From positions 1,122 through 65,121 of the forward strand of contig JACQZI010000005.1 in NCBI GenBank assembly GCA_016207825.1: 64,000 nucleotides of DNA, read 5' to 3'. The DNA comes from Planctomycetota bacterium. GTDB lineage: Bacteria > Planctomycetota > MHYJ01 > JACQXL01 > JACQZI01. Shown piece by piece: positions 1 to 59,036 of the stretch (position 1 is the first letter of the stretch; each line of letters opens with the position of its first letter). The notes beneath the pieces are model-generated. The model was given only the letters and a program-made list of their open reading frames with translations. It made no database searches and was not told where the DNA came from. Position numbers and translations under genes: made by a program.

Positions 1-176
1 CCCACCGGGGAACTTTCCCCGCCTTCCGTAGCTCTTTCCCCGCCCTCCGGGAAACACTCCCCGCCTTCCGCAGAACTTTTCCCGCCCTCCGGGAAACACT
101 CCCCGCCTTCCGCAGAACTTTTCCCGCCTTCCGGGAAACAGTTCCCGCCCTCCGGGGCGGATTTCCCGGGACCGGG
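1..176. repeat. Tandem array with a 21-bp unit and 42-bp super-period, at least 8 units, running to the window edge. On the minus strand the units alternate 'gtttcccggagggcgggaaaa' and 'gttctgcggaaggcggggagt'; the first contains the perfect palindrome TTCCCG-N5-CGGGAA. It lies immediately 3' of the paralog gene at 186..2522.
   Basis: Direct reading: ccccgccttccgcagaacttttcccgccctccgggaaacact repeats three times, with further partial copies. Confidence 0.8.
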
Positions 177-2865: not shown

Positions 2866-2883
2866 TAGCAAATATCGTGCCAA
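2866..2883 (-). promoter_or_regulatory. Sigma-54 (-24/-12) promoter TGGCACGATATTTGCTATA, driving 2750..2538 and 2522..186.
   Basis: Reverse complement of 2866-2883 is ttggcacgatatttgcta. GG and GC are 12 nt apart, matching the TGGCAC-N5-TTGCW consensus exactly. Three EBP genes lie nearby. Confidence 0.7.
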
Positions 2884-3007: not shown

Positions 3008-5035
3008 TTACCGTTTGGTAACATTAGAGATGGTTATCTTTAATTGTTTTATCTTTTTGGAAAGAGTTGAACGGTCGCTGTTAAGTTGACAAGCCGCTTT
3101 GGTGATATTTCCATTGTTCTTTTTAAGAACTTCTATAATAATACTCTTTTCTATTTCATTACGTAATTCTTTAAGAGGACTATCCGATTTGATAGCAGAT
3201 TGGTTCATATTAATGTAACTCCGGATTGGGTTAGATAGCATTGATTCTTCAATAACATTAACATCCGGATACAATGCGCAGATGCGTTTTATCTCGTTTT
3301 CTAGTTCGCGGATATTGCCGGGCCAGGGGTAGGCGGTGAAAAGCGCTAACGCGCTGGGGGATATGTCAGCCCCGACGTTCGTCGGGACTTCGCTTCGCTC
3401 CGGAATTTCCTTACGGGAAAGAGAGCATTTTCGTAAAAAATGCTGAGCGAGGATGGGAATGTCATCCCCGCGGTCGCGAAGAGGAGGAAGATTGATTATA
3501 ATAGTATTGATACGATAAAACAGGTCTTCCCTGAATAACTTCTGCTTAACCATCTGCTCAATAGTCTGATTAGAGGCAAAGACAAAGCGGGTATCAACCG
3601 GAATAGGTTTTTGTCCACCCACTCTCCAGAGAAGTTTTTCTTCCATAACCCTAAGTAATTTTTGTTGCATAGACGGAGACATATTAGAAATCTCGTCTAT
3701 GAAAAGCGTTCCGCCTGAAGCGAGTTCAATATAACCTTTTTTATCTTCTATAGCGCCGGTAAAAGCGCCTTTGGCATGGCCGAAAAGCGTACTTTCAACA
3801 AGCGTTTCGGGAAGCACCCCGCAATTGAACGGTAAATAGGATTTGTTTATACGCAGGCTATTATTATGTATGGCATTGGCAATAAGTTCTTTTCCGGTTC
3901 CTGTTTCTCCCTGGATTAAAACCGGCATATCCGTAGGAGAAATCTTTTCTATAAGATGATAAATTTCTTGCATTGAGGGGGAATTGCCGACAATGGTATA
4001 TTTATTAACCGAATTTTCGTAACGGTCATCAAGGGTTTGAACCAATATCTGCGGGATAAACCTGGATTCATGTTTGGTTTTACCCTGTAATTGTTGATAG
4101 AGCCTGTCAAATTCCCTGGTTTTTTCATACAGCCAAATCGTATCCAGTTTAGATAAAACAGGCTTTATCCTGTTTTCTATAGAGCTGGCTTTACGCGACA
4201 GCCCTTTAAGAGAATAGCATTTGCATAAAAGGAATCCGGCTTCACAGGCAAGGTTATTTAATTTCAAGCATAATGCTTCTTTCATTATGTCCGGCAAAAT
4301 CCGAAACGCGGAATCCAACTGGTTTTCCAAAAGGTCAATGGCAGCAAGATGTATTTTCGCTTCAAGGATGCCGCGCGGGAAATCCGCTTGCTCGCATGCT
4401 TTAAGGGATATCTGAAAAGACTGGCGTGCCTGGCGATAGTCTTTTATTGACATCAGATACTCGCCTTTAATGTGCATATAATCCATGAAGTATATCTCGC
4501 CGGACGGGGACAGCAGGGAAGGTGAAAGTTTTTGTTCAATAATTTGCCCTGCTTTCCCCAAATCGTTTTTATATAAATAACAATAAGCTAAATTAATCAG
4601 GGTCGAAACATACATTTCCTTATTCATTGGAAACGTGTAACTCGTGAGTTTTTGGCAGTATTGCTCTACTTTATGGAATTGGCTTAAAGCCTGATTGATA
4701 TGCATCATAACCAGGAAATTAAGCCCCATCTTAAACGAAGCATACGCGACGCGAACTTGTTCAAGATTATGTTTTGAAGCGGTTAAGTATGCTTTATAGA
4801 AAGCATCCAGCGAGCGGGCATATTCCGCAAGGCTAAAACAAGCAAATCCCAGATGGCAATATAAAAGGTGTTCTTCAAAAGGCGAATAAGAAAGGGAAGG
4901 GAGTTTCCTTAGCGCCTTTTCGCCCAAACGCTTGGCGTTATCCCAATCCTGTTTATCCAAGGCGGACCTAATTTGTTCCAGACAATCAGATAATGGTTTA
5001 GATTCTCTTCGTTCACTACGAGTGCGTTTTGGCAT
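3008..5035 (-). CDS. Sigma-54-dependent transcriptional activator (EBP) with an N-terminal TPR-like domain, a central AAA+ domain (GETGTGKE Walker A; GAFTGA) and a C-terminal Fis-type HTH. There is no receiver or GAF domain.
   Basis: Motifs are visible in the translation. The true start is probably the ATG (MPKRTRSE) at 5035, because the TTG of the ORF-track start lies inside the -35 box. Confidence 0.85.
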   Translation of the reverse strand: MPKRTRSERRESKPLSDCLEQIRSALDKQDWDNAKRLGEKALRKLPSLSYSPFEEHLLYCHLGFACFSLAEYARSLDAFYKAYLTASKHNLEQVRVAYASFKMGLNFLVMMHINQALSQFHKVEQYCQKLTSYTFPMNKEMYVSTLINLAYCYLYKNDLGKAGQIIEQKLSPSLLSPSGEIYFMDYMHIKGEYLMSIKDYRQARQSFQISLKACEQADFPRGILEAKIHLAAIDLLENQLDSAFRILPDIMKEALCLKLNNLACEAGFLLCKCYSLKGLSRKASSIENRIKPVLSKLDTIWLYEKTREFDRLYQQLQGKTKHESRFIPQILVQTLDDRYENSVNKYTIVGNSPSMQEIYHLIEKISPTDMPVLIQGETGTGKELIANAIHNNSLRINKSYLPFNCGVLPETLVESTLFGHAKGAFTGAIEDKKGYIELASGGTLFIDEISNMSPSMQQKLLRVMEEKLLWRVGGQKPIPVDTRFVFASNQTIEQMVKQKLFREDLFYRINTIIINLPPLRDRGDDIPILAQHFLRKCSLSRKEIPERSEVPTNVGADISPSALALFTAYPWPGNIRELENEIKRICALYPDVNVIEESMLSNPIRSYINMNQSAIKSDSPLKELRNEIEKSIIIEVLKKNNGNITKAACQLNSDRSTLSKKIKQLKITISNVTKR

Positions 5036-5042
5036 GGTTCCA

Positions 5043-5071
5043 TTTATACAAAAAGAAGGGGCGACTGTCAA
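5043..5071 (-). promoter_or_regulatory. Sigma-70-type promoter TTGACA-17-TATAAA, 7 nt upstream of the EBP ATG, giving a leaderless or near-leaderless transcript.
   Basis: Minus-strand reading: cTTGACAgtcgccccttctttttgTATAAAtggaaccATG. The same architecture occurs at the other two EBP genes. Confidence 0.55.
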
Positions 5072-11792: not shown

Positions 11793-11808
11793 TGGCACGA
11801 TATTTGCT
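11793..11808 (+). promoter_or_regulatory. Sigma-54 promoter TGGCACGATATTTGCTATA upstream of the DOMON operon.
   Basis: The core is identical to those of the other three sigma-54 promoters. Confidence 0.65.
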
Positions 11809-11820
11809 ATATTATAGCTT

Positions 11821-13548
11821 ATGTTGCATACTAGAATGATAACACCCCTATCAAAGATAAATCTCTTTATCAAAGGAAGGGCAAACTGGTTTACAATAGC
11901 GCTCTTTTTTTTATTATTAAGCATCATCAGTTTTGGTATTAGCGGTTTTTGCAATAAATATGAAGGAAATGAAACCGAAGTCGGAAGCAGCGGGATAAGC
12001 CAGATTACTTCGCCTGCACCGCCCGGCGGAACGGTTGATATCCCGATTACCGCCACACTCTCGTGGGAAATTGTTCCCGGTGCAACTCATTATGCGGTTT
12101 ATTTCGGTTTAACTACGGACGGCTTGAGCCCGGTTACAAATACGATGTTGACTAATTATGAGCCGGGAATTCTTGAATATAACACTACTTATTACTGGCG
12201 GGTAGATCCTAATAACATTAATCAGGTTGTCATCGGACAATTGTGGTCTTTTACTACGATGGCTCAAGCAACAAATTCTCCGCCGCAGGCAAACACTCCC
12301 AATCCGGCAAATGGCGCCACTAATATTCCAGCTGCCTGCCAGCTTTCCTGGGCTGCGGCAACCGGGACGAATTCTTATACGATTTATTGCGGAACATCCT
12401 CTCCTCCTCCCTTAGTAACAACCTCCACAGTAACAGCTTATCATCCGGGTATTCTTGCCTACAACACCACCTATTACTGGCGGATAGATTCCAATAATAA
12501 CGCTGGGACCACCCAGGGAGTAGTATGGAGTTTTAAAACCAAAGCACCGCCGGTAAATCCGCCAGCTCAGGCAACAAATCCAACGCCGGCGAATGGCGCA
12601 ACGAATATTATTGCAAATACCCAACTATCATGGGCTATGGCCACCGATGCCACTTCTTATGACGTGTATTTCGGAACAGTTAACCCGCCGCCGCTCAAAA
12701 TAACCACCCTTGACACAACCTATAACCCGGGAACGCTTAATAATAATACCGCTTATTATTGGCGGGTAAATTCCAAGAATATCGTCGGAACCACCCAGGG
12801 AGCAGTATGGAACTTTACCACACGGGCACAAGAAACCGCTCCCAATCCGCCATCCGGATTAACGGCTACGGCATTATCATCTTCCCAGGTGGTCATCTCC
12901 TGGACCGATAATTCCGGCGATGAAACCGGCTTTATCGTGGAACGCAAAACCGGTCCCGCCGGCACATATGCGGTAATTACCACTCTGCCTGCAAATACCG
13001 GTGTGTACACGGATATCAGCGCAGCGCCCTTCACCACCTACTATTACCGGCTGGCGGCATGCAATGCCTCAGGAAATAGCGCTTATTCCAATGAAGCTTC
13101 TGCCGTCACTTTCAACCGGATTGCTTCCGGCACTATGGTCCTGCAGTGGAAAGCCGAAGGCGACAATCTCAGAATCAGGGTCAGCGCACCGGCTACCGGC
13201 TGGATCTCTGTCGGGTTTGACGCGACTAATAGGCATCAGGACGCAAATATCATCATAGGTTACATCAGTAACGGCAGGCTGTTTATCCAAGACGATTACG
13301 GCACAGGCTCCACCACCCACTCCTCCGATATTTCGCTGGGCGGGACCGATAACATCACGGAGAAAACCGGCGCCGAAGCCAACGGGACCACCGAACTGGT
13401 TTTTACGATTCCGCTTAATTCAGGCGATTCACGCGATAAACCGCTCGTTGTCGGCAATAGTTATAATGTAATACTGGGTTACGGCAACACGGATAATTTT
13501 ACCGGCATGCATGCGTTCGCTAGAACTATAAATATAAAGATTCAATGA
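11821..13548 (+). CDS. Exported protein with three Fn3-like repeats of about 90 aa (…ATxYxVYFGT…YYWRV), one canonical Fn3, and a C-terminal DOMON-like domain.
   Basis: The C-terminal 170 aa are paralogous to the C-termini of 13577 and 15147. The start codon is uncertain because the sigma-54 transcription start site abuts the ATG. Confidence 0.55.
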   Translation: MLHTRMITPLSKINLFIKGRANWFTIALFFLLLSIISFGISGFCNKYEGNETEVGSSGISQITSPAPPGGTVDIPITATLSWEIVPGATHYAVYFGLTTDGLSPVTNTMLTNYEPGILEYNTTYYWRVDPNNINQVVIGQLWSFTTMAQATNSPPQANTPNPANGATNIPAACQLSWAAATGTNSYTIYCGTSSPPPLVTTSTVTAYHPGILAYNTTYYWRIDSNNNAGTTQGVVWSFKTKAPPVNPPAQATNPTPANGATNIIANTQLSWAMATDATSYDVYFGTVNPPPLKITTLDTTYNPGTLNNNTAYYWRVNSKNIVGTTQGAVWNFTTRAQETAPNPPSGLTATALSSSQVVISWTDNSGDETGFIVERKTGPAGTYAVITTLPANTGVYTDISAAPFTTYYYRLAACNASGNSAYSNEASAVTFNRIASGTMVLQWKAEGDNLRIRVSAPATGWISVGFDATNRHQDANIIIGYISNGRLFIQDDYGTGSTTHSSDISLGGTDNITEKTGAEANGTTELVFTIPLNSGDSRDKPLVVGNSYNVILGYGNTDNFTGMHAFARTINIKIQ

Positions 13549-13576
13549 GCTTTTTTAAGCAGAAAGGATTCTCGGC

Positions 13577-14353
13577 ATGAAAAAGATATTAGTGGTTTTA
13601 GGCTTGCTGGCATTACTCGCCCAGTCCGTATCGGCAGATGAAGCAGAAAACGCGCCATCCGAATTAACGGCAACTTCCTTATCTTCTTCCGAGGTCGTTA
13701 TCTCTTGGTCGGATAATTCCTCTGATGAAACCGGCTTTGTCATCGAACGCAAAACTGCTGTCACCGGCACTTATGCGGCGATTGTCACAACGACCGCCAA
13801 TACGACCGTTTATACCGATACCGCGCTGTCATCATTCACCACGTATTATTACCGCCTCTCGGCAGTTAATGACACGGAAACGAGCGCCTATTCCAATGAG
13901 GTTCCTGCCGTTACATTCAACCGGACGACTGCCGGTGATATGGTTCTGCAGTGGAAAGCCGAAGGCAATAATCTCAGAATCAGGGTCAGCGCACCGACTG
14001 CCGGCTGGGTTGCAGTCGGTTTTAAAACTGCCGCGGGCAAAAAGGACGCTAATATCATCATGGGATACGTTAAAAAGAACGGGGTATTTATCGAGGATAA
14101 TTACGGCATAGGCGCCACGAACCACGCCGCCGATACTGCCGGGGGAGGAACCGATAACGTCACGGAGAAAACCGGCACCGAAGCCAAAGGGACCACCGAA
14201 CTGGTTTTCACTATCCCGCTCGATTCCGGCGATGACCGGGATAAAAAACTCGTCGTCGGCAATACCTACAATACGATGCTGGCTTACGGCAAAACGGATA
14301 ATTTTACCGGCATGCATACGTTTTTCAGGGTCATAAAGATAAAAATCCAATGA
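13577..14353 (+). CDS. Exported Fn3 plus DOMON-like domain protein
   Basis: Signal peptide; paralog of the C-terminal half of 11821. Confidence 0.6.
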   Translation: MKKILVVLGLLALLAQSVSADEAENAPSELTATSLSSSEVVISWSDNSSDETGFVIERKTAVTGTYAAIVTTTANTTVYTDTALSSFTTYYYRLSAVNDTETSAYSNEVPAVTFNRTTAGDMVLQWKAEGNNLRIRVSAPTAGWVAVGFKTAAGKKDANIIMGYVKKNGVFIEDNYGIGATNHAADTAGGGTDNVTEKTGTEAKGTTELVFTIPLDSGDDRDKKLVVGNTYNTMLAYGKTDNFTGMHTFFRVIKIKIQ

Positions 14354-15132
14354 TAAAAAAAATATTGCCTATCTTGCTCCTGGTTGGATTAATTATCCTG
14401 CCGGTCTTGGCGGATGAACCGGAAGAGGAGACGGAAGAAGAATCCCTGGAATATGTTTATTTTCCTTCAGAAATGATTAACCTGAAAATGCCCAACCAGC
14501 AGGAGCCGCATTCGCTGATTTTCATCATCACGCACCGCTTCTACGGTGAGTTAAACCATAACCCCATGGAAACCGCCAACCTCTTATTCGGCATTAAATA
14601 TATCGCTTCTCCCAAGGTGGAACTGGAAGCGCTCTACGGAATGAACCAGAATGAATACAGCATCGGCGCCGGTTATTATTTCCTGAACTCAGGGATTATA
14701 CACGGCCAATTCAATGCCACCCTTTTTGATTATAAGGACATTGCCTTTGAAGAAAGAAGCATCAATGCTTTTTACCAGCTCTCTATGGATACCAAGCCGC
14801 TTTTCAAGCATGTTACGCCGGTGGTTAATGCCGGTTATGACGGCTACTATGAAAGGTTCGGCTACGGCTTCGGCTTAAAAATAGCTTTCAATATCGCGAA
14901 CTCAACGGTAAAAAAAGTAAACATCATCAGCGAATATTATCCTATTACGGATCCCGAAGCAGGAATCACCCAGCCCAAGCCGGTCTCCTGTTTCGGCATC
15001 GGCATAGATACCTTCCGGCACAATTTTGTCCTCCAGGTGACTAACGGCAACGAAGCGGGTGTCAGGCGGCTTATGCTGGGCGCGCCTGACGACGAGCTTC
15101 ACTTCGGTTTTAATATACTCGTGAAATTCTGA
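14350..15132 (+). CDS. Putative outer-membrane beta-barrel protein
   Basis: Signal peptide, alternating amphipathic strands and a C-terminal …ILVKF. Confidence 0.45.
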   Translation: MIKKILPILLLVGLIILPVLADEPEEETEEESLEYVYFPSEMINLKMPNQQEPHSLIFIITHRFYGELNHNPMETANLLFGIKYIASPKVELEALYGMNQNEYSIGAGYYFLNSGIIHGQFNATLFDYKDIAFEERSINAFYQLSMDTKPLFKHVTPVVNAGYDGYYERFGYGFGLKIAFNIANSTVKKVNIISEYYPITDPEAGITQPKPVSCFGIGIDTFRHNFVLQVTNGNEAGVRRLMLGAPDDELHFGFNILVKF

Positions 15133-15146
15133 AAGGATGGCGTGGC

Positions 15147-15683
15147 ATGAAAAAAATAGTATTGGCTCTTTTCTGTCTGGCAATAATGGCAATCAATAAT
15201 GGTTTCAGTTGCAATACCCACGACGAACAGGTGTCATCCGGCTCTTCCGGCGCCGCCGTAGGACAGGTGACGGCCGCGGGTGTTACCATGAAGTGGTCTG
15301 TGGTGGGAACCGATTTATCCGTAACACTCAGCGCCCAGACTGCCGGCTGGGTCGCGGTCGGGTTTAACCCTACCAACAGGCACCAGGGCGCCAATATTAT
15401 CATCGGCTATGTCAGCGGAGGCGTGGCATTTATCGAGGACAACTTCGGCAACGGCCCTACCACCCATGTTACCGATGGAATCCAAAACGTTACGGAAAAA
15501 ACCGGGACCGAGGCCGGCGGCATTACCGAAATAAGTTTTAAAATACCGCTTAATTCCGGCGACGCCCAGGACCAGCCGCTGGTTGTTGGGACCAACTGCA
15601 CGATAATATTGGCTTACGGTCCGGCGGATAATTTCACCACCCAACACACCAGTATGGGGACTGCGCTTATCAGAATCCAATAA
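15147..15683 (+). CDS. Lipoprotein with a DOMON-like domain
   Basis: Lipobox GFSC; paralog of the 13577 C-terminus. Confidence 0.55.
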   Translation: MKKIVLALFCLAIMAINNGFSCNTHDEQVSSGSSGAAVGQVTAAGVTMKWSVVGTDLSVTLSAQTAGWVAVGFNPTNRHQGANIIIGYVSGGVAFIEDNFGNGPTTHVTDGIQNVTEKTGTEAGGITEISFKIPLNSGDAQDQPLVVGTNCTIILAYGPADNFTTQHTSMGTALIRIQ

Positions 15684-17896: not shown

Positions 17897-17912
17897 TGGC
17901 ACGATATTTGCT
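17897..17912 (+). promoter_or_regulatory. Sigma-54 promoter TGGCACGATATTTGCTATA
   Basis: Identical to the promoter at 2866..2883 and marks the start of a roughly 400-bp inverted duplicate. Confidence 0.7.
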
Positions 17913-18157: not shown

Positions 18158-20485
18158 ATGCGTAACACGAAAGTTTGCGAAGCGAAGTGCGAAACGACAG
18201 TGGAGTCCCGACCTAATCGGGGTAGTCCCGACGCACGTCGGGGGAATTTTGGATTTTGTGTATTATTAATTATTTGGAGCTTGGGTTTTGGTGCTTGGGA
18301 TTTGTGTGCGGACTCCTGGTCCCAGACCACCTTTACCGATGGGACATTTAATAGCACGATGAGCGCTACCAGTGGCAGCGATGTAAGTCTTTTTGTATCC
18401 ATTGATGCTGGTAATGGCACGGATGGTGCAATAACCGTTGCCGCGGCAAAAAATATTAATACGGATACCATTGCCGCCGGCAGGACTGTCGCCGATGGCT
18501 GGAACTCACGCGTTTCCGCCCTTACGGCAAATACAGCTACATTAGTAACCACACCTCCTGTTAATACTTTTGCAGTCGGTGACGAAGTTATTTTAATCAG
18601 TCTCAAAGGCATCTCTGCGGCTTATGGTAATGTTGGATTATATGAATTCCTTCGTGTCCAGTCAGTTGCTGGTAATATAATTACCTTTACCGCCAATAAA
18701 ATTAACTGGTACGGTGATGGCGCTAATGATACCAATGTCGGAACAAATCAAGTCGTGATGCTCCAGCGGGTGCCTAATTATACTGATGTAACGATTAATA
18801 TCGGCGGCTCACTTGCCTGTTCGGCTTTTGATGGGACAAAGGGAGGGATTCTTATCGTTAAAGCTACCGGAACAGTTACGGTAAATGCGCTGAATGGTAT
18901 AAATGCGAGTGACCGCGGATTTAGGGGCGGCGTTGGAGGCGGTTACTCCAGTCGTTCGGGTGGTGGTGAGTCATATAATGGCACGGGTGGTGCCGGTGGT
19001 GTAAATGGAGATGGATATAGTCCTCGTAGCGTTGGTTTAGCGGGTCAATCCGGCCAAGGTGGCGGTGGCGGCGCTGGTGCGTATGATAGTACTCTTGGTA
19101 CTGCAGCCGCTGGCGCGCTTGGTTCAGGTGGTGGTGCTGGCGGCGGCAGTGGTTACTACTCCAGTAACGATATTGGTGGTGGTGGCGGCGGCGGCGGTAA
19201 TGGAGGAACAGGCGGTGGCGGCGTGGGTGGCGGAGGTACGGCCGGGGCTGGTTCAGGAACTAACGGTGGTAATGGTAGTGCGGGGGTGGGTACCCGCTCT
19301 GCCGGTGGCGGCGGCGGCGGTGGGAACGATGGTCGGGCAGATTCTTCCGGGCTGGGTAATCGGGCATATATGGGTGGCGGTGGTGGTGCCGGTGGCGGCG
19401 GTTTTGAAGGTACGACATCTACCGCCGGACAACCCGGAGGCAATGGCGGAGGTATAATATTTATCTGTGCTAATAATATTAACGTTGCCTCAGGTGCATC
19501 TATTGCCGCAAATGGAGCAAACGGAGGAGCTGTCGGCACCTATGTAGGTGGTGGTGGCGGTGGGGCTGGTGGTTCTATAATTCTGAACTCAATCAGCGTG
19601 TCTAATTCAGGTTCCGTCACTGCTATTGGCGGTTCAGGAGGTTCCAATGCTCTTTCCGGCGGCGCGGGTGGTGGTGGTCGAACATATGCTCGGTATGTGG
19701 CTTTCAGCGGCACTGCACCAACCCCAAATTACTCAAGTGGAAATCCATCATCATATACTACTGCCGGCACCTATGTTTCATCGCTGATTAATTTGACTGG
19801 TCTTTCCTCTTGGGGTATTTTAACCTATACACGAACCGCTCCGGCAAATACCACCTTTACAGTTGACGTCTTAAAGGCCATAGATAATTCCATCCTGGTT
19901 TCTAACGTTGCTTCCGGCGTTAATCTTTCATCGGTTCTTCCATCGCCGTTATGCTATGCCATCAGGCTCCGGGCTAACTTTTCTACTTCAGATAATACCC
20001 AAACCCCGACCCTTTCTGACTGGGGAATAAACTACACAAGCGGCGGGACGACCATCACCACCACCAACTGGACGGATTTGGTTAACGGGCAATCCGTCCG
20101 GATGGGACAATCTATCGCCCACGTTAAATTTGAAATGAAAACATTTGATGGCACTGCCCGCTGGAGACGTTTCCGTATCGATAAAGGATTAAAAACATAC
20201 ACAAACCTTGCCTGCCCGGATTCTAAAATAGAAGTTCAGGTCTGGTGCGATACAAATGCCAATGGTTTCTGGGATACCGGCGATACGTTCATCGCTAAAG
20301 GCAATTTTACCAACGGCACGTGTTATCTCAATATGAAACAATGGCAGGTAACGACTACCACCAAGACTTATTATATCGTGTATAAATTAGCCAGTGATAT
20401 CAGCGGCGGCACCCGCGCCGGGGTGAAGATAGCGGATAGCAGCTATCTTGAATTTGAAAATGCCACTTGTATCGGAGTGCCATAA
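18158..20485 (+). CDS. Exported paralog 2: a leader identical to paralog 1 plus an 11-codon hairpin-element insertion, a Gly-rich central region (GGGxGG runs, probably beta-helix) and the conserved C-terminal module.
   Basis: The N-terminus MRNTKVCEAKC…RRGNFGFCVLLIIWSLGFGAWDL matches ORF 186..2522. The C-terminal 300 aa align with 48731, 50696 and 53061. Confidence 0.65.
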   Translation: MRNTKVCEAKCETTVESRPNRGSPDARRGNFGFCVLLIIWSLGFGAWDLCADSWSQTTFTDGTFNSTMSATSGSDVSLFVSIDAGNGTDGAITVAAAKNINTDTIAAGRTVADGWNSRVSALTANTATLVTTPPVNTFAVGDEVILISLKGISAAYGNVGLYEFLRVQSVAGNIITFTANKINWYGDGANDTNVGTNQVVMLQRVPNYTDVTINIGGSLACSAFDGTKGGILIVKATGTVTVNALNGINASDRGFRGGVGGGYSSRSGGGESYNGTGGAGGVNGDGYSPRSVGLAGQSGQGGGGGAGAYDSTLGTAAAGALGSGGGAGGGSGYYSSNDIGGGGGGGGNGGTGGGGVGGGGTAGAGSGTNGGNGSAGVGTRSAGGGGGGGNDGRADSSGLGNRAYMGGGGGAGGGGFEGTTSTAGQPGGNGGGIIFICANNINVASGASIAANGANGGAVGTYVGGGGGGAGGSIILNSISVSNSGSVTAIGGSGGSNALSGGAGGGGRTYARYVAFSGTAPTPNYSSGNPSSYTTAGTYVSSLINLTGLSSWGILTYTRTAPANTTFTVDVLKAIDNSILVSNVASGVNLSSVLPSPLCYAIRLRANFSTSDNTQTPTLSDWGINYTSGGTTITTTNWTDLVNGQSVRMGQSIAHVKFEMKTFDGTARWRRFRIDKGLKTYTNLACPDSKIEVQVWCDTNANGFWDTGDTFIAKGNFTNGTCYLNMKQWQVTTTTKTYYIVYKLASDISGGTRAGVKIADSSYLEFENATCIGVP

Positions 20486-20541
20486 GTTCTCCGCCAGAGG
20501 CAGGGCGCAGGATGTTACAAGGGATTATAGGAGGTTACAAG

Positions 20542-23004
20542 ATGTTACCGAAAACATGTATCTCATTAAATCCCCTCTTGAGAGGGGTCAGGGGTGTGTT
20601 ATCTTCTGTCTTTCTTCTCTCATCTCTCATCTTTCCCCTCTCTGTTTCTGCCGGTTCTTTCCCTAACTTTGACAACTCCGGCGGCGGCTCCTGGACTACC
20701 GGCTACTACCGTCCCATCTCCATCACCAATACCGCCGGCGCCCAGACCGATTATCAAGTTGCGGTAACTCCATTTGGCCCGGAATATGAAGAAAACAATG
20801 GGAATGTCACGTATAATGGGACATGGAATGTTTACAATAATGTAAATTGCAGCCGCGGTTCCCAAAAATGGTCAACCACAACGAACAACACCGCAACTTT
20901 TTCCTTTAATGGCACCGGTGTTACATGGGTTTCAACAAAGAACGCAGATTATGGTATTGCTAAAGTCTACATCGACGATGTCTATCAGCAAAACGTAGAC
21001 CTTTATAATTCAACGAATATATTCCAGCAAGCTGTTTATACTAAAGATGGGCTGGCAAATGGGTTTCACACAATTAAAGTGGAAGTAACCGGCACAAAAA
21101 ACGCTTCGTCTACTAATTATTATGTTACCATAGACGCGTTTGATACCGGCAACTTTATCAATAACTCCGGACTGGTCGGCTCGTGGCACTTCTCCGAAAA
21201 CTCCGGCACCGCCGCCGCCGATATGTCAGGCAATGGCAATAACGGAACGTTAACTAACAGTCCAATATGGGTAGACGGCAAGTTCGGAAATGCATTATCC
21301 TTTGATGGAGCGAATGATTATGTAAGCGTGTCGGATAATAATGCGTTAACATTTGGCAACGGGACAACCGATTCGCCTTTTTCAATAGAATTATGGGTAT
21401 ACCCTAATTCTGCGAGTGGTGCTGTTATAGCAAAAGCAACTGCTTCTAATGCCGGTGAATATTATATCACAACTGCCGGAGGAAATTTATATTTCAGGCT
21501 GGTAGATAATAGCGCCAGTGGTTATATAGGAATATATGCCGTGATTTCCCAAAATCGATGGACTCATATCACAGCAGCTTATGATGGCAACGGTATTTCC
21601 GGAATGAGATTATATTTTAATGGCGTCTTGCAGGCAACAACTGCGTCAAGTTCAGGCAGTTATACCGCAATGGAAAATCTTGCTACCAATCTTAAAATAG
21701 GCGAAAGAGAGAGTGGCAGTAACTATTTTAACGGTCTCATTGACGAAGTCCGCATCTATAACCGGGCGCTCACCGCCGCCGAAATCACCACCCGCTATAA
21801 CTACTACACCAACAAACTCACAGGCGATTATTCTGATATCCGCTTCGCCCTTAGTCCTCCCCCAAATTCCGGCAATGAACTTTCTTACTGGCAGGAGACT
21901 GATAACAAGTTCTGGCTGAAGATTCCCAACCTGCCCGCTGGCGATTCTTATATCTATATGTATTACGGCAACCTAAGCGCGGAAAATTCAAGCGACGAAA
22001 ACAATGTCTTCGGGTCGGCAACTTCTAACCTCGCCCTGGGTAAAACATATACTAAATCAGAAGCCCCCTCCGGCTCTTATCCGGATACAGGCAATGCTGA
22101 ATTTACCGACGGCCAGCCTGATGAAACATGGGCGGATTCTTTTGGTTATGGTAAACCAAGCACCAATTATTGGCTGGAAATCACCGTTGATTTAACTTAT
22201 TCCAAGCTGATAAAGAATCCGATTTTGTATACCGGCGGCGGAACTGGATATCGGGCGCATTATGTGGAAATCTACGGCAGTCCTGATAACACCGCTTTTT
22301 ACCTGATTGGTTCCGCAGGAAATTTGAATTTAGGCACCGCGGATATAGGAATTTCCCCACTGGACATAACGACCACTCCCCGTGTTTTCAGGTATGTTAA
22401 ATTTAAAATTAATAAAGAGTGCGGGACTTCAGTGCAGGCAACCGATTGGCTTTTTGTCGGAGAGGGAATTGTTAACGGCAAAAGCCGCCAGTATGTTTCC
22501 CCAGAACCGACAGTTTCCGCACCGGGTGCGGAAAGTTTTGCACTCGACAAATACATCCAGACCGCCAACTGGCAAAGCCTTGTTTCATCCGGAAAAAGCA
22601 TCGTCATGGGGCAATCTATTGCCCAAGTTTCCTTTACCGCCGTCTTTACCGGCACTGACTCGGCAGGCAAAACAGCTAAATGGAAAAAGCTCCGCATTGA
22701 TAAAGGCGTCGGCGCCTATGCCGGTAGCGCCTGCCCTGATTCCAAAATAGAAGTCCAAATCTGGATGGAGAATAATGGCAACGGCTTCTGGGATACCGGC
22801 GATACCTTTATCGCTAAAGGCAACTTCACCAACGGCACGTGCTATTTGAATATGAACCGGTTTCAGATAACAACTACTCAGAGAACATTTTATATTGTAT
22901 ACAAATTAGCCAATGATATAGGAGGGGGGCAAAGAGCGGGCGTTAAGATAGTTGATAGCAGTTACCTTGAATTTGAAAACGCTACGGCAATTGGAGTCCC
23001 GTAA
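20542..23004 (+). CDS. Exported paralog 3: 'PLLRGVRGVL' leader, a DUF2341-like N-terminal domain, a LamG/concanavalin-like domain and the conserved C-terminal module.
   Basis: GGAGG-7-ATG at 20542. LamG signature …FGNALSFDGANDYVSV…LYFNG…. The C-terminal 170 aa belong to the family. Confidence 0.6.
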   Translation: MLPKTCISLNPLLRGVRGVLSSVFLLSSLIFPLSVSAGSFPNFDNSGGGSWTTGYYRPISITNTAGAQTDYQVAVTPFGPEYEENNGNVTYNGTWNVYNNVNCSRGSQKWSTTTNNTATFSFNGTGVTWVSTKNADYGIAKVYIDDVYQQNVDLYNSTNIFQQAVYTKDGLANGFHTIKVEVTGTKNASSTNYYVTIDAFDTGNFINNSGLVGSWHFSENSGTAAADMSGNGNNGTLTNSPIWVDGKFGNALSFDGANDYVSVSDNNALTFGNGTTDSPFSIELWVYPNSASGAVIAKATASNAGEYYITTAGGNLYFRLVDNSASGYIGIYAVISQNRWTHITAAYDGNGISGMRLYFNGVLQATTASSSGSYTAMENLATNLKIGERESGSNYFNGLIDEVRIYNRALTAAEITTRYNYYTNKLTGDYSDIRFALSPPPNSGNELSYWQETDNKFWLKIPNLPAGDSYIYMYYGNLSAENSSDENNVFGSATSNLALGKTYTKSEAPSGSYPDTGNAEFTDGQPDETWADSFGYGKPSTNYWLEITVDLTYSKLIKNPILYTGGGTGYRAHYVEIYGSPDNTAFYLIGSAGNLNLGTADIGISPLDITTTPRVFRYVKFKINKECGTSVQATDWLFVGEGIVNGKSRQYVSPEPTVSAPGAESFALDKYIQTANWQSLVSSGKSIVMGQSIAQVSFTAVFTGTDSAGKTAKWKKLRIDKGVGAYAGSACPDSKIEVQIWMENNGNGFWDTGDTFIAKGNFTNGTCYLNMNRFQITTTQRTFYIVYKLANDIGGGQRAGVKIVDSSYLEFENATAIGVP

Positions 23005-23104
23005 CACGAAATCAGTGCGAAGCCTCCCCGACAGGGGGCGAAACTGAAATGCGGAAACACGAAAGATTAATATTCCGTGTTTTCGTGTAACAGAAAGGAG
23101 GTGC
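23005..23104 (+). promoter_or_regulatory. Conserved 100-bp leader, identical at 45703..45834. It contains three CACGAAA / TTTTCGTG complementary segments and the CCCCGACAGGGGG hairpin, and ends in AAAGGAGGTGCGTG.
   Basis: Identical copy after paralog 5. Alternative pairings suggest an attenuator- or riboswitch-like leader. Confidence 0.4.
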
Positions 23105-23421
23105 GTGTTCCCGCAAGGGTATAACCTGTGCCCTCAAGGGCAAAACTTGTGCTCTCAAGAGCAGAACTCGTACCCTCAAGAGCAGGACTTGTGCCCACAA
23201 GGGCAGAACCTGTGCCCGCAAGGGCAAAACCTGTGCTCTCAAGGGCAGAACTTGTGCCCGCAAAGGCAAAACCTGTGCCCGCAAGGGCAAAACCTGTGCT
23301 CTCAAGGGCAGAACTTGTGCCCGCAAAGGCAAAACCTGTGCCCGCAATGGCAAAACCTGTGCTCTCAAGGGCAGAACTTGTGCCCGCAAAGGCAAAACCT
23401 GTGCCCGCAAGGGCAGAACTC
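23105..23421 (+). repeat. Tandem array of about 15 copies of a 21-bp unit with 63-bp super-period: gtgcccgcaagggcaaaacct, gtgctctcaagggcagaactt and gtgcccgcaaaggcaaaacct. It contains the palindrome TGCCCGCAAGGGCA and is followed by the hairpin ccccgaaattcttcgggg.
   Basis: Direct reading. All three frames are open. Frame 1 would encode a Cys-containing heptad (NLCPQGQ)n from a GTG that follows the SD. Confidence 0.85.
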
Positions 23422-23480
23422 GTGCCCCGAAATTCTTCGGGGTACCCCCGATTATATCGGGGAGAAAAGGAGAATTGTTT

Positions 23481-24173
23481 ATGGCAATAATAAAAGGGAC
23501 TAACTATCTCCCGCAAAAGGACGATGATTTCTTCAATTTCCAGGGCAATTTGGTCAACGAGGTCGTAACCAACACGGCTTGGGGCATTATGCCTGCGGCG
23601 GTAACGGCGCTGGTCGCCCGCCGGGCTTCGTATGAGCCGCTCTATACCAAAAGCCAGAATAAAGGCAACCGGACTCAGGCAGACGTCTTAGCCCATCGCC
23701 AGATGCGCGAACTCTATGAAAAGGAAATCAGGGCATTCGTCAAGACCTGGTTGATGTTTAATCCAATGGTTATGGACCAGGACCGCCGCCGGATGCGACT
23801 GACCGTGCGCGATGTTGAACCGACCCCCAGGGGAAAAATCACTTCCTTCCCGATTATCGGGTTAATCGCCGTGGGCGGCGGTTCTATTGAAGTCCGTGCC
23901 CGCGTCACGACCGACCAGACCAGATCCAGTATGCATTCTTTAGCCGATGCCGTGGAAGTGAGATATACCCTTGTGCCAAAAGGCGAGATGCCGCCGGACG
24001 ACCCGGAATCCTGCCCTAAAAATCAGGTATCAAAAAAGGCGCGGTTTTCCATTGCTTGCGGGGTGAAAAATGCCGGAGACACTTTTTACGGGTTTTTCCG
24101 CTGGGTGAACCTGACCAACCCGCAAAACAACAGCGACTGGACGACCAAACCCGAAGGCGTGGTCATTGCGTAG
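23481..24173 (+). CDS. Hypothetical protein
   Basis: AAAGGAG-8-ATG. Preceded by a CCCGATTATATCGGGG hairpin. Confidence 0.5.
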   Translation: MAIIKGTNYLPQKDDDFFNFQGNLVNEVVTNTAWGIMPAAVTALVARRASYEPLYTKSQNKGNRTQADVLAHRQMRELYEKEIRAFVKTWLMFNPMVMDQDRRRMRLTVRDVEPTPRGKITSFPIIGLIAVGGGSIEVRARVTTDQTRSSMHSLADAVEVRYTLVPKGEMPPDDPESCPKNQVSKKARFSIACGVKNAGDTFYGFFRWVNLTNPQNNSDWTTKPEGVVIA

Positions 24174-39640: not shown

Positions 39641-39946
39641 CTTATTCTCCTTATTTTCTACGGTGGCACAAACCTTTATTCCCACAGTAGAATATCAGAA
39701 TTATCAGGAATGTCAATCTATTTATTCTGCCTCGTTTTTTTTTGTTATCCAGTTTGACTTTAGCCGTGTTTTATGATATAAATAATATTTTGTAAGCTGA
39801 TTAAGCGGATTGAACCGGTTTGGTTTGTGTATCAGAAAAATCAGATAAATTGGCTTAATCTGCCTCTACCTATTTATTAAATCAGGCGTCCCCGAATCAC
39901 GCAAAGCGGGATGAAAGGGACTTACTTTATTAATCTCTTATGGAAA

Positions 39947-40111
39947 ACGAGAACTGTTTCGCCATTCCAAAGTTAAGTATTAAATCAAAGGCGAACGTGC
40001 TCATTATACCATTGATAGCAGTATGTTAAACGAGCGCTGCTTCGCCATTCCAAAGTTAAGTATTAAATCAAAGGCGAACGTGCTCGTTATACCAATTATA
40101 GCAGTATGTTA
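39947..40111 (+). repeat. Tandem duplication, 2 copies and the start of a third, of an 82-83-bp unit that includes the dinB start codon. It creates two 28-29-codon upstream ORFs whose TAA stop overlaps the next ATG (ATGTTAA).
   Basis: aacgag…ttcgccattccaaagttaagtattaaatcaaaggcgaacgtgctc…agcagtatgtta repeated. Confidence 0.8.
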
Positions 40112-41299
40112 AACGAGCGCTATATCGTCCACGTTGATATGGATGCGTTTTTCGCCGCTATCGAACAGCGGGATAATCCGTCCTTGCGCGGGAAACCGGT
40201 TATTGTAGGTTCCGATCCTAAAGGGGGCAAAGGCCGTGGCGTAGTCTCCACATGCTCATACGAGGCGCGCAAGTTCGGAATCCATTCCGCCATGCCTATC
40301 TCGGAAGCCTATCGCAGGTGCCCCACCGCCATCTTTCTCCCCGTTGATATGGAAAAATACTCGCGCGTCTCAGGCGAGATATTCAAACTGCTCTATGAAT
40401 TCACTCCGGTCATCGAACCCGTCAGCATTGACGAGGCGTTTCTGGATATCACGGAAAGCTATAAAATCTTTGGAACGCCGCTCAAGACCTGTGCATTAAT
40501 CAAGGAACGCATCAAAAAGGAAACGGGATTGACTGCATCGCTCGGGATGGCGCCGGTCAAGATGGTTGCCAAGATTGCCTCCGACCTAAAAAAGCCCGAT
40601 GGCTTTGTCGAAGTGAAAGCGGGCAAGGTGCGCGAGTTCCTGAACCCACTGCCTATCAGAAAACTCTGGGGATTGGGGGAAAAGAGTGAAATCATTTTTA
40701 ACCGAATGGGGATTAAAACCATCGGCCAACTCGCCCGGATGGATGAAGAGAAATTAGTTGAGATACTCGGAGAAAACGGGCGGCATCTGCTCTCCCTCTC
40801 TAAAGGAATCGACCCGCGGGAAGTCGTGACCGAATATGAAACCAAATCCGTCAGCAAGGAATTCACCTTTGATGTTGATACGCTGGATAAGAAAAAGATA
40901 GAAGCGACCCTGATGCTCTTGTGCGAGGGGGTCTCGGCTAATCTGCGCGCGGAGGGATTAAAAGGCCGGACCATCACCCTGAAAATCCGGCTGGAAGGCT
41001 TTGAAACTTACACGCGGGCGGCAACTATAACTGAGCCGACGAACTTCGAGGACGTGATTTACCAGGAAATAAAAACGCTCTATAATAAGTTTGAGACACG
41101 AGGGAAAAGGATTCGGCTTTTGGGGGTGAAGGTTTCGCACTTCGGCGAGGTGGGAATACAAACGAACCTCTTCGAAAAGCCCGACCGGAAAAAGGAAGAA
41201 CTCCACAAGGCGCTTGACGCCATCAAGAAGAAGTTCGGCGATGACGCCATCCACCGCGCCACGGTAATAAAAAATAAAGACGAGTCACAAACCAGTTGA
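40106..41299 (+). CDS. dinB: DNA polymerase IV
   Basis: MLNERYIVHVDMDAFFAAIEQRDNPSLRGKPVIVG and later Y-family motifs. Confidence 0.9.
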   Translation: MLNERYIVHVDMDAFFAAIEQRDNPSLRGKPVIVGSDPKGGKGRGVVSTCSYEARKFGIHSAMPISEAYRRCPTAIFLPVDMEKYSRVSGEIFKLLYEFTPVIEPVSIDEAFLDITESYKIFGTPLKTCALIKERIKKETGLTASLGMAPVKMVAKIASDLKKPDGFVEVKAGKVREFLNPLPIRKLWGLGEKSEIIFNRMGIKTIGQLARMDEEKLVEILGENGRHLLSLSKGIDPREVVTEYETKSVSKEFTFDVDTLDKKKIEATLMLLCEGVSANLRAEGLKGRTITLKIRLEGFETYTRAATITEPTNFEDVIYQEIKTLYNKFETRGKRIRLLGVKVSHFGEVGIQTNLFEKPDRKKEELHKALDAIKKKFGDDAIHRATVIKNKDESQTS

Positions 41300-43487: not shown

Positions 43488-43503
43488 TGGCACGTTATTT
43501 GCT
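43488..43503 (+). promoter_or_regulatory. Sigma-54 promoter TGGCACGTTATTTGCTATA
   Basis: Same core as the other three. Confidence 0.65.
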
Positions 43504-43540: not shown

Positions 43541-43789
43541 ATGAATAACAACAAAGCGAATAAATCGGGATTAGCTTGCCCCCCGCTCAGCACGGATGAT
43601 CTCGTTGTGTTGCGCGGCAAACCAATGGCAAAAATAATCCAACCTATTAATAACCATCCTCATCCTGCAAAGGACTCGTTCCCGTCTACAACAGAAGAAT
43701 GGGTTTACATATCTATCAGGGATAATTCTAATGAACATTATTTCTTTGAAAATCAACAGCTTGTTGGATGGAAGAAAACAGCGGTATGA
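43541..43789 (+). CDS. Small conserved protein of 82 aa, family member 2
   Basis: LRGKPMAK…EEWVY…EHYFFENQQLVGWKKTAV. Confidence 0.5.
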   Translation: MNNNKANKSGLACPPLSTDDLVVLRGKPMAKIIQPINNHPHPAKDSFPSTTEEWVYISIRDNSNEHYFFENQQLVGWKKTAV

Positions 43790-45702: not shown

Positions 45703-45823
45703 CACGAAATCAGTGCGAAGCCTCCCCGACAGGGGGCGAAACTGAAATGCGGAAACACGAAAGATTAATATTCCGTGTTTTCGTGAATTCTTTTCGTGTT
45801 TTCGTGTAACAGAAAGGAGGTGC

Positions 45824-47086
45824 GTGTTCTCGCAAGGGTATAACCTGTGCCCTCAAGGGCAAAACTTGTGCTCTCAAGAGCAGAACTCGTACCCTCAAGA
45901 GCAGGACTTGTGCCCACAAGGGCAGAACCTGTGCCCGCAATGGCAAAACCTGTGCTCTCAAGGGCAGAACTTGTGCCCGCAAAGGCAAAACCTGTGCCCG
46001 CAAGGGCAGAACTCGTGCCCCGAAATTCTTCGGGGTACCCCCGACCGTAAAAAACTGCTGGAAAACAAAGATTCTAACCAACCCGCATGCTGTCTCTTGG
46101 CTCCGATAATCAAGCCGTTTAGCGATACTTTGAAGGAAGCGTGCAAAAATAAAAACCAGGTGATTAAAGACCGGGCCAATCAAGTTCGCTTGAGCCTTTT
46201 GGCTTCGGTTAAATCAAAAATCATTTACATTTCCGGCAGTGCCTTACATATAAAGGATATAATAGGCAACGATTCCCCGATAATCAATTTTAACGATATA
46301 ACAGATTTGCCATCTATCTGTTCGAAATGCAATATCGCGGTCAATCAGGCTGGAGATAAAATCCTGTTTGTCGGCTATGACCGGGAAAAGAACAGGGATA
46401 TTTATAAGCTGGATATAACAGAGAAAAAATGTTATCGGCTTACAGAAGATACGGCAGATGATTTTGCCCCTTCTTGGAGTCCGGACGGAACTAAAATCAC
46501 ATTTACTTCAACTCGGGATGGCAATGATGAAATATATGTAATGGATGCGGACGGAAAAAATCAAAAGCGTCTTACGGAAAATAAAACTAATGATAGCATG
46601 CCTGTCTGGAGGCCGGATGGCACATTCATTGCTTTTATTTCCGACCGTGATGGAACAAACACCATTTACACGATGAATCCTGACGGGACAAACCAGCAGA
46701 AAGTTCTTAGCCTTAAAGCGGATAATATTTCCGCTCTCGGAATGCATCCGGATGGGACTAAAATCGCATTTGCCTCCAACCGGAGCGGAAAATATGAAAT
46801 ATACACAGCCGGAGGAATGGGCGATGAAATAACACAGATAACCAAATGTCCGGAAGAGTTTGAATTCGTCGGCAGTCCAATCTGGAGTCCGGACGTCACG
46901 CAAATCGCGTTTGCCGCAAAGGTAAAAGGGCAACATGAGATTTATATAATGCCTGCCCGTCCGTCAGGCGGGAATGTGGACGGCTCAAATATGCGCAATA
47001 TAAGCAATAATCCAGAAGCTGACGATCTTTCGCCCGCTTGGATTCCATCCGATTTAAAAAAGCTTTCTATCTTATTTTCAGAATGA
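45824..47086 (+). CDS. TolB-like PD40 beta-propeller protein whose only available N-terminus is the in-frame translation of the 21-bp array, a Cys heptad (NLCPQGQ)n.
   Basis: No ATG, GTG or TTG with an RBS lies between the array and the first PD40 blade. The paralog 27159 has a normal signal peptide instead. Confidence 0.45.
   Translation: MFSQGYNLCPQGQNLCSQEQNSYPQEQDLCPQGQNLCPQWQNLCSQGQNLCPQRQNLCPQGQNSCPEILRGTPDRKKLLENKDSNQPACCLLAPIIKPFSDTLKEACKNKNQVIKDRANQVRLSLLASVKSKIIYISGSALHIKDIIGNDSPIINFNDITDLPSICSKCNIAVNQAGDKILFVGYDREKNRDIYKLDITEKKCYRLTEDTADDFAPSWSPDGTKITFTSTRDGNDEIYVMDADGKNQKRLTENKTNDSMPVWRPDGTFIAFISDRDGTNTIYTMNPDGTNQQKVLSLKADNISALGMHPDGTKIAFASNRSGKYEIYTAGGMGDEITQITKCPEEFEFVGSPIWSPDVTQIAFAAKVKGQHEIYIMPARPSGGNVDGSNMRNISNNPEADDLSPAWIPSDLKKLSILFSE
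45835..46014 (+). repeat. Second copy of the 21-bp tandem array, about 8.5 units, preceded by the same 100-bp leader (45703..45834, with an extra 21-bp duplication) and followed by the same ccccgaaattcttcgggg hairpin.
   Basis: Identical to units of the 23105..23421 array. The copy number differs between the two arrays (15 versus 8.5). Confidence 0.85.
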
Positions 47087-50596: not shown

Positions 50597-50695
50597 AAAC
50601 GGCTACAACAAATATTATTTCTTTAAGAATGAATACTTAGTAATGCGAAAAAAAAACGCTTATGAAATTATACACCTATAAAAATGGAGATTTTT

Positions 50696-58744: not shown

Positions 58745-59036
58745 AAGAGCCTACTATCTTTATAATGGAGGGGTACCTTACTATGATGCCATATTTAGCT
58801 TAATTATAATAGATAGCTACCTTACTATGTTGCCATACTTAGCTCTATTATAATGGATAGACACCTTACTATGATACCACGCCTATTTTAATTATAGTGG
58901 AATGGGGCCTTACTTTGATGCCATACTTATTTTAATTATAATGGATGGCTACCTTACTATATTGCCACACTTAGCTTAATTATAATGGATAGGTACCTTA
59001 CTGTGATGCCATACTTGCAATATTTATAATGAAGGG
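58745..59036. repeat. Tandem repeat of about 6.5 units with a period of about 44 bp (taccttactatgatgccatacttagcttaattataatggatagc). Each unit carries a TATAAT-like box.
   Basis: CCTTACT recurs at 58777, 58821, 58864, 58910, 58953 and 58996. The units are contiguous and degenerate with no spacers, so this is not a CRISPR array. Confidence 0.8.

Follow-up and report, generated by a model that had tools for sequence, protein, structure and literature searches.

Intercistronic hairpin clusters are known from the enterobacteria as REP/BIME elements, for example between malE and malF, reportedly described by Newbury, Higgins and co-workers in 1987, and intercistronic tandem repeats are known from Mycobacterium as MIRU, variable-number repeats of 46-101 bp for which Supply et al. 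reportedly proposed small coupling open reading frames (ORFs) in 1997. The present analysis concerns tandem arrays with a period of 21 nt detected in a stretch of 64,000 nt from a Planctomycetota bacterium (GenBank assembly GCA_016207825.1, contig JACQZI010000005.1, positions 1,122 to 65,121 of the forward strand), which is called the window throughout. Three arrays were found there, array A at 1..176, array B at 23105..23427 and array C at 45824-46020, each at the 3′ end of a member of one paralog family, and they were compared with similar arrays in other genomes and metagenomes. The comparison revealed a family of arrays whose constant neighbor is a downstream gene of 228-230 aa, whose period is fixed whilst the unit sequence turns over, and which might act as transcribed blocks of RNA hairpins.

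The arrays share with REP/BIME the clustering of short GC-rich stem-loops in transcribed intercistronic gaps and, if the analogy is followed, perhaps also the proposed block of 3′-to-5′ exonucleases that leads to different levels for neighboring genes. However, REP/BIME elements are ~35-40 nt long and occur as hundreds of dispersed copies in alternating orientation with linker motifs and RAYT transposases, whereas the arrays described here run head-to-tail with a period of strictly 21 nt, number one per locus and go with a single gene family. Dispersal of the REP type was not observed for array A, as its hairpin pattern TTCCCG-N5-CGGGAA has four matches in the 64-kb window (0.54 expected), three of them inside the array itself. 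With MIRU the arrays have in common the tandem repetition inside operons, the orientation with transcription, a unit length that preserves the reading frame and a variable copy number, but three of the arrays are closed in all sense frames.

Operons can also be reshaped by differential decay (PMC5927463). STAB-SD, a 5′ mRNA stabilizer of Bacillus thuringiensis cry3A (Agaisse and Lereclus 1996, as cited in PMC12970973), is a Shine-Dalgarno sequence without a start codon that, according to the account given in PMC12970973, binds 30S subunits and protects the downstream mRNA. The likeness lies in a perfect Shine-Dalgarno (GAAAGGAGG) placed far upstream of the real start and unused for initiation, to which GAAAGGAGGTG in the leader of array B may be compared. 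STAB-SD stands alone, without a tandem array following it, and is a feature of Firmicutes, in which RNase J is active; the decoy Shine-Dalgarno of the present arrays is a prediction, and the visible part of array A has none. The BrickBuilt minisatellite, which is a MITE (miniature inverted-repeat transposable element) found in Porphyromonas gingivalis (PMC4596501), is likewise a spacer-less array of ~21-23-nt units with leader and tail, intergenic, capable of forming hairpins, variable in copy number and copied as a cassette. BrickBuilt has inverted-repeat ends, ~19 copies per genome and near-identical units and is species-specific (PMC4596501), whereas the present arrays lack terminal inverted repeats and stay syntenic in lineages that have diverged deeply, each of which has a unit of its own; the 64 kb contain two copies of the cassette (B and C), with no inverted repeats at its ends. 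Overall, the arrays are most like the known intercistronic or untranslated-region (UTR) stabilizers, from which they differ in strict periodicity, in sequence turnover with conserved geometry and in their fidelity to one gene family.

Eleven independent loci were taken from genomes and metagenomes other than that of the window, and all 11 have an array of 3-11 copies with the 21-nt period that ends 14-97 nt before the ATG of the 228-230-aa gene; the contigs fetched for eight further homologues of the 230-aa protein, which are counted among them, each carry such an array. The distance to the ATG is as short as 14-15 nt in two loci (L011 and L014). Each fetched locus contained one array, and several loci have a contig break inside it. 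The upstream gene varies among the loci and encodes a peptidase C1/PEGA/dockerin protein, an alpha/beta hydrolase, PEGA/OMP proteins or only small ORFs, whilst the downstream gene is constant, so the constant partner of the arrays is the 230-aa gene and not the paralog family. An earlier note, made from the window sequence alone, had tied the arrays to that paralog family. The arrays are indeed non-random and abut paralog 3′ ends in the window, and in two distant genomes, L001, from a Brocadiia metagenome-assembled genome (MAG), and L002, a paralog-type gene likewise stands before a 21-nt array, which has another unit, and a homologue (45% identity) of the window gene at 23481-24173 comes after that array. 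Nevertheless, with the array standing before the 230-aa gene in all 11 loci and the upstream gene varying, the paralog link is a local view of the wider association, which has the better support.

The 230-aa gene of the window lies at 23481..24173 on the plus strand, and more than 200 homologues were detected in metagenomes; across the 11 lineages the partner proteins are 54-77% identical. The protein has no sequence match in Pfam, PHROG, NCBIfam or PDB and no relatives in IMG/VR. Its structural model (pLDDT 88.7) consists of an N-terminal helical bundle and a C-terminal FN3-like sandwich, for which fold searches returned generic FN3 matches only. A phage origin was rejected on the missing IMG/VR relatives, the missing PHROG match for the 230-aa protein and the generic nature of the FN3 fold matches.

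Other features were observed around the partner gene and the arrays elsewhere. In seven loci a tail-fibre-like protein, which starts with MxLxPxEVKTEHI, has short (I/V)T..KI.DGAVT repeats and matches phage tail-fibre PHROGs, is encoded 3′ of the 230-aa gene (L001 5670-6587, L006 5780-6571, L007 1259-2401, L009 5788-6614, L010 5779-6750, L011 5781-6929 and L012 5854-6411); the window has no such gene. Two genes upstream of the array, L009 (2902-3513) and L010 (3038-3637) encode a small (~200 aa) tyrosine recombinase, and L009 also has a DDE transposase near the array. A conserved motif of ~30 nt, GGCGATGTTTCGCATATCGAAAATCACCTCC, was found upstream of the array in three loci (L007 60-100, L011 4525-4560 and L012 4650-4685), and its reverse complement consists of a ribosome-binding site and the 5-codon ORF ATG CGA AAC ATC GCC TAA.

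The period is exactly 21 nt in 13 of 13 arrays, although their unit sequences have diverged to chance level; the unit consensus differs in every lineage and is mostly no more similar to the others than shuffled controls are. Nine arrays fit one register of 5-nt arm, 4-nt loop, 5-nt arm and 7-nt spacer, in which the complementary arms are each able to pair across the 4-nt or the 7-nt segment. A total of 53 distinct units with 265 stem cells were analyzed in this common 5-4-5-7 register, and standard pairs were found in 86.8% of the cells against 47.3% in shuffles (none of 500 reached the observed value) and 42-56% with slid partners. Each of the five stem positions harbors 4-5 pair types, with a covariation score of 0.97 against 0.24. 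Arm identity between lineages is at chance (0.29-0.30), whilst that of the spacer is 0.39-0.47; its second base is A at 0.71-0.78, and seven arrays have it as YAAVYYG. A YCAA loop is common to three arrays whose stems are unrelated, and a compensatory double change was observed inside the L004 array (TAGGT/ACCTA vs TAGCG/CGCTA). As read from these alignments, the arms are shown to be free to change while their complementarity is kept, with the 7-nt spacer and the period held. The arrays of the window are not, as had been claimed, unrelated in sequence, having unit geometry and spacer motif in common. Palindromy above column-permuted units was significant in A, L004, L006, L009, L011 and L012, and the best-scoring stems of all arrays hold 63 G.U against 30 A.C, seven arrays, including array A on its minus strand, favoring the sense strand.

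Array A, tentatively placed on the minus strand, is cut by the window edge and contains ~8 units of 21 nt between 1 and 176 by hand reading, with a 42-nt super-period. Tandem Repeats Finder reported period 42 with 3.7 copies, 89% matches and a score of 224 at 1-154, together with overlapping period-21 rows at 10-133 and 39-156, in agreement with the earlier description of the array. It lies directly 3′ of a paralog, as had been noted, begins 10 nt after the stop codon (186-188) of this gene, P1 (186..2522, minus strand), and runs off the window edge, so that its downstream side is beyond the window. Two minus-strand units alternate, TTCCCG-GAGGG-CGGGAA-AAGT and TCTGC-GGAAG-GCGGG-GAGTGT, with geometries of 6+5+6+4 and 5+5+5+6, complementary arms and a period of 21. 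TTCCCG-N5-CGGGAA occurs as TCCCGCCCTCCGGGA at 80-94 and as a variant at 122-136; its arms are as previously described, but with a non-palindromic 5-nt center it is an inverted repeat and not a perfect palindrome. The palindromy of array A was reached by only 2 of 200 column-permuted controls. There are four G.U pairs on the minus strand against one on the plus strand, and the second unit pairs on the minus strand only, with two G.U pairs there whose plus-strand counterparts are A.C. A likeness to the L001 unit was also seen for the minus strand, which has GGCGGGGAG in common with two adjacent hairpins directly 3′ of paralog P7 (55356..55392, plus strand), a pair that may, to judge from this likeness, be a two-unit relative. 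On the hairpin reading, array A would be a hairpin block in the 3′ UTR of the P1 mRNA.

Array B, on the plus strand after paralog P3, contains 15 units of TGCCC-GCAA-GGGCA-AAACCTG and variants with a 63-nt super-period (15.3 copies at 23106-23427 in Tandem Repeats Finder). Its leader (23002..23104, plus strand) extends from the P3 stop codon to the array and carries the Shine-Dalgarno-like GAAAGGAGGTG, with no start codon, at 23093-23103. The leader RNA is predicted to be structured (fold z = -3.2), the compact structure beginning at the P3 stop codon, and an inverted-repeat search identified a long-range helix of 23001-23014 with 23078-23091 and inner hairpins. The GC-rich hairpins GTGCCCCGAA/TTCGGGGTAC (23422..23462, plus strand) stand 3′ of the array and mark the end of the segment that is duplicated at locus C. 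There, after paralog P4, a leader with a Shine-Dalgarno-like motif at 45812-45822, the 9 units of array C (9 copies at 45833-46020 in Tandem Repeats Finder) and a terminal hairpin make up 45703..46045 on the plus strand; the exact 11-mer GAAAGGAGGTG occurs in the window only in the two leaders, at 23093 and 45812. Array C is array B minus six units, with leader and array 98-100% identical between the loci. The block of identity (23002-23452 vs 45700-46045) begins exactly at the stop codon with a sharp boundary, the last 130 nt of coding DNA before it being only 66-76% identical, and no terminal or flanking inverted repeats were found between the cassette ends. Both further arrays of the earlier note therefore exist, but C is a copy of B and the two count as one observation. 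The window has a single copy of the 230-aa gene and none 3′ of array C, which is thus a solo copy of the B cassette.

The transcription context was analyzed by a consensus scan for sigma-54 promoters, in which a perfect motif agrees at 12 of 12 specified positions. The motif TGGCACGATATTTGCT (2867..2882, minus strand) lies between P1 and an upstream gene for a sigma-54 enhancer-binding protein (3008..5071, minus strand, likely start 5035) with TPR-like N-terminus, AAA+ domain and Fis-type helix-turn-helix (HTH) in Pfam. An identical motif (17897..17912, plus strand) precedes P2-P3, array B and the 230-aa gene, and TGGCACGTTATTTGCT (43488..43503, plus strand) precedes the gene at 43768, P4 and array C; each of the three stands between an activator gene and the next gene, which is P1, P2 or the one ahead of P4. 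The same 16-mer stands before the peptidase gene of L004 (2771-2786), an unrelated metagenome contig, and a near-identical one occurs in the window at 11793-11808 (plus strand). The distance from the perfect -24/-12 motifs down to the arrays is 2-5 kb, and the interval from an array to the following ATG contains no such motif. This places the arrays within sigma-54 transcription units or at their ends, and a search for terminator-like sites gave none that would separate P3 from the 230-aa gene. For L011 and L014 the position requires that the array belong to the transcript, because the 14-15 nt before the ATG leave no room for a promoter. It was also observed that most TGGCACGATATTTGCT-type 16-mers stand 3′ of a gene for a TPR-type or PocR-type sigma-54 activator and 5′ of secreted-protein genes.

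A Shine-Dalgarno without a start codon, AGAAAGGAGGTGATTT or a close variant, was present 2-76 nt upstream of 8 of 10 arrays, namely in the leaders of B, C and 6 other loci. It mimics the ribosome-binding site of the 230-aa gene itself with no start codon at the corresponding spacing, and it is complementary to ~14 nt of the conserved 3′ tail of 16S rRNA. In leader B, GAAAGGAGGTG sits 377 nt before the ATG of the 230-aa gene and has no usable start codon.

We favor, tentatively and at somewhat less than an even chance, a reading of the arrays as a transcribed, intercistronic and cis-acting block of RNA hairpins that would serve stabilization, processing or protein binding. The arms vary yet stay complementary, the loop and spacer are conserved and the position is transcribed, which argues for base-paired hairpins and not for a DNA operator bound by a dimer. 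Among the roles proposed in the earlier note a string of RNA hairpins fits best, the choice of RNA over DNA being tentative. The array would occupy a transcribed stretch that has the 228-230-aa gene on one side and, on the other, a gene for a secreted protein, in many cases under sigma-54 control; here the hairpin block would stop or direct ribonucleases and so leave the upstream message with a protected 3′ end. Together with a decoy Shine-Dalgarno that binds a 30S subunit in the manner of STAB-SD, it would give the downstream message a protected 5′ end, and the outcome would be two uncoupled cistrons with boosted expression and set relative levels. A protein that reads each unit, for which the conserved spacer or loop speaks, could also explain the fixed period. 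We infer these functional steps by analogy with REP/BIME and STAB-SD. The unit number would change by whole units; L004 and L005, one locus in two samples with flanks identical over 6.4 kb, differ in their arrays by exactly one unit, which is suggestive of copy-number variation, although the assembly of repeats from short reads could also produce the difference.

If this reading holds, the 21-nt array family is a conserved and previously undescribed non-coding element of uncultured Planctomycetota (Brocadiia-related MAGs), seen here at more than 10 loci, probably present at more than 200 and missing from Rfam, and it combines a decoy ribosome-binding site with strictly periodic hairpins in sigma-54 operons. 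The arrays would then provide a natural case for how tandem hairpins set the relative output of neighboring cistrons, and they raise the question why the period stays at exactly 21 nt despite complete sequence turnover. The element also draws attention to a conserved and probably highly expressed module made up of the 230-aa protein and its fibre-like partner and, for annotation, explains spurious repeat-peptide ORFs and contig breaks at such sites.

A more specific version, which we regard as rather improbable, takes the arrays as multivalent RNA platforms read unit by unit by a dedicated protein, the candidate being the adjacent 228-230-aa protein, co-located in every case, with its conserved basic helical N-domain, so that the mRNA leader and its own product would form a periodic ribonucleoprotein. 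If true, it would mean autogenous control, co-assembly or message localization for a surface-fibre module, and bacterial repeat RNAs would gain a new class in which a protein serves as 21-nt ruler.

Several observations weigh against the RNA hairpin reading. The co-variation register was chosen with a hairpin in view, and the units within an array are related by descent. Against column-permuted controls palindromy was marginal in B, L002 and L007 and, for L001 and L010, no higher than in the controls. The common register gives a weak strand signal (G.U 21 vs A.C 15), and minimum free energy favors the antisense strand in L011, L012 and L002, so that the strand result by folding is mixed. The orientation of array A is ambiguous by similarity, its minus strand resembling the L001 unit and its plus strand resembling array B, with which it has GCAGAACTT-TTCCCGC in common, and in its visible part no decoy Shine-Dalgarno leader separates it from the P1 stop. 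No second 230-aa homologue from the same 201,771-bp contig was found among the best 120 matches; array A may therefore, like array C, be a solo copy, part of the P1 3′ UTR only. Finally, the exact period of 21 is left unexplained by the RNA model alone, whilst a DNA-phasing model predicts just such a period of exactly two turns.

A double-stranded DNA binding platform is the best-surviving alternative, though we consider it unlikely. In this case a protein would sit on every unit, with the 21-bp spacing aligning all units on one helix face, and a cooperative filament would regulate or block transcription into the downstream gene in the manner of iterons, centromere-like repeats or omega-type heptad arrays; iterons and centromere-like repeats are likewise ~20-bp direct repeats in phase with the DNA helix. 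Helical phasing explains directly why the period is exactly 21 bp in 13 arrays despite sequence turnover, the units are inverted repeats, the wobble pairs of the common register give no clear strand bias and Fis-type HTH enhancer-binding proteins are encoded near several loci. However, it is the half-site arms that are unconserved between lineages and the center and spacer that are conserved, and the compensatory changes inside the L004 array fit base pairing and not the recognition of arms by one protein. No conserved DNA-binding protein is encoded beside the arrays, the only constant neighbor having a helical bundle and an FN3-like fold; there is no space for a promoter downstream of the array in L011 and L014, and the sigma-54 promoters are 2-5 kb upstream. 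The arrays have a chromosomal context with no replication or partition gene and no origin. The iteron-like binding array of the earlier note is weakened on the same grounds, and plasmid iterons were rejected on the missing rep or partition gene and origin features and on a unit in which complementarity but not sequence is conserved.

A minisatellite that is selfish or without function, be it an ancestral 21-bp tandem repeat or a mobile cassette of leader, array and tail, which turns over by slippage and unequal exchange and owes its position to descent or insertion preference, is judged somewhat less probable still. The complete turnover of units homogenized within each array would fit such an origin, as would the one-unit difference between the otherwise identical L004 and L005 and the copying of the B cassette to locus C as a sharp-edged block without the 230-aa gene, and BrickBuilt is a precedent as a 23-nt spacer-less minisatellite with leader and tail (PMC4596501). 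Yet 11 of 11 lineages, with partner proteins that are only 54-77% identical, have retained the array in one position, the period is unchanged in every lineage though most unit positions are substituted, and arm complementarity has been kept through the substitutions. The cassette has no terminal inverted repeats, on which ground a MITE was rejected, and a single array per fetched locus is not the picture of a dispersed element.

Improbable is a recombination hot spot, one of the candidate roles in the earlier note, when taken as driving exchange among the paralogs. Three arrays abut paralog 3′ ends in the window, the B/C cassette was recently exchanged or copied and a relic paralog 3′ end follows P7, but in most genomes the array is not beside a paralog, and the identity block begins at the stop codon and excludes coding DNA, the opposite of the expected trace.

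A translated heptad-repeat peptide, whether as its own small gene, a MIRU-like coupling ORF or the tail of a convergent gene outside the window, has very little probability left. The unit of 21 nt equals 7 codons and would encode LCPQGQN in array B and CFPEGGK/SSAEGGE, or on the plus strand PPSGKHS/PPSAELF, in array A, and many unit variants are seemingly synonymous in one frame. In B and L002 a strong Shine-Dalgarno is followed by GTG or TTG, with ORFs that cross the array and overlap the start of the next gene, and gene callers predicted ORFs across the arrays of L010 and L012. However, all three sense frames of the L004, L006 and L009 arrays are interrupted by stops, a start codon at a workable distance is missing from most leaders, array ORFs terminate at unconserved places (before, inside or after the next gene start) and the 'synonymous' positions are those of loop and spacer. 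Repeats of this kind can be expected to have open frames by chance, and array B is open in several frames on both strands. As a general explanation the peptide is refuted by the three closed arrays and the unconserved starts and stops. On the plus strand of array A frame 1 is open from base 1 to the TAA at 187-189, but a convergent ORF reading into the array from outside the window is unlikely by analogy, because the homologous arrays are non-coding.

Other identities were rejected more directly. An array of sigma-54 promoters fails in that the unit junctions of array B read GG-N10-GC and those of other arrays do not, and a sigma-54 enhancer (upstream activating sequence) array would need a -24/-12 promoter within ~100-200 bp, where the actual promoters are kilobases upstream. 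Sigma-70 promoters within the units have the wrong spacing, and the GC-rich arrays have no -10 element. A CsrA-type GGA sponge or Shine-Dalgarno-like array was dismissed, since only part of the arrays contain GGA/GGAG and chance would yield 4-mer matches. A CRISPR array was excluded by head-to-tail units without unique spacers and by the lack of cas domains in Pfam scans. Rfam searches of the window at gathering thresholds returned tRNA only, and E-value searches on arrays A and B gave only sub-threshold chance matches.

The paralog family itself numbers seven members in the window by C-terminal-domain alignment, where four had been counted before. P1 combines an RCC1-repeat propeller, an Ig-like domain and the shared ~140-aa C-terminal domain, which ends YLEFENAT..GVP, with YLEFENATAIGVPP* as its last residues. 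P2 (18158-20485) and P3 (20467-23004), together spanning 18158..23004, and P4 (44353..45702), all on the plus strand, end in the same domain, as do three further paralogs at 48731-50596, 50684-52984 and 53061-55343 (P7). The N-terminal parts are very different and include an RCC1 propeller, glycine-rich repeats, LamG/DUF2341 and DUF4082. The C-terminal domain has no Pfam or NCBIfam match; the family is rare, its domain having been detected elsewhere at three loci by domain scans and in five database proteins by protein search. None of the seven paralogs was found in a database of 5.8 billion proteins, though neighboring genes are present there. In the segment 55343-55420, 3′ of the P7 stop, the two hairpins are followed by GAGAATGCTACGTGCATAGGAGTTCCTTAA, which encodes ENATCIGVP* and is, as its translation reads, a relic of an older paralog 3′ end left after replacement of the C-terminal domain.

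The window as a whole is a fragment of a bacterial chromosome, with genes for PNPase, HflX, tRNA-Ala and three sigma-54 activators. It also contains an AT-rich tandem array at 58760-59031 with a 44-bp unit (TTATAATGGATAGGTACCTTACTATGATGCCATACTTAGCTTAA, 6.2 copies, 132-bp super-period), which is located between the rpsO-like region/pnp and the next gene and is unrelated in sequence to the 21-nt arrays. Two tandem 83-bp units (90% identical) at 39939-40104 stand directly upstream of a DinB/ImpB-type polymerase gene (40106-41299), and three adjacent fn3/DOMON paralogs at 11821-15683, with 76-80% DNA identity and 805-bp spacing, lie downstream of a sigma-54 motif.

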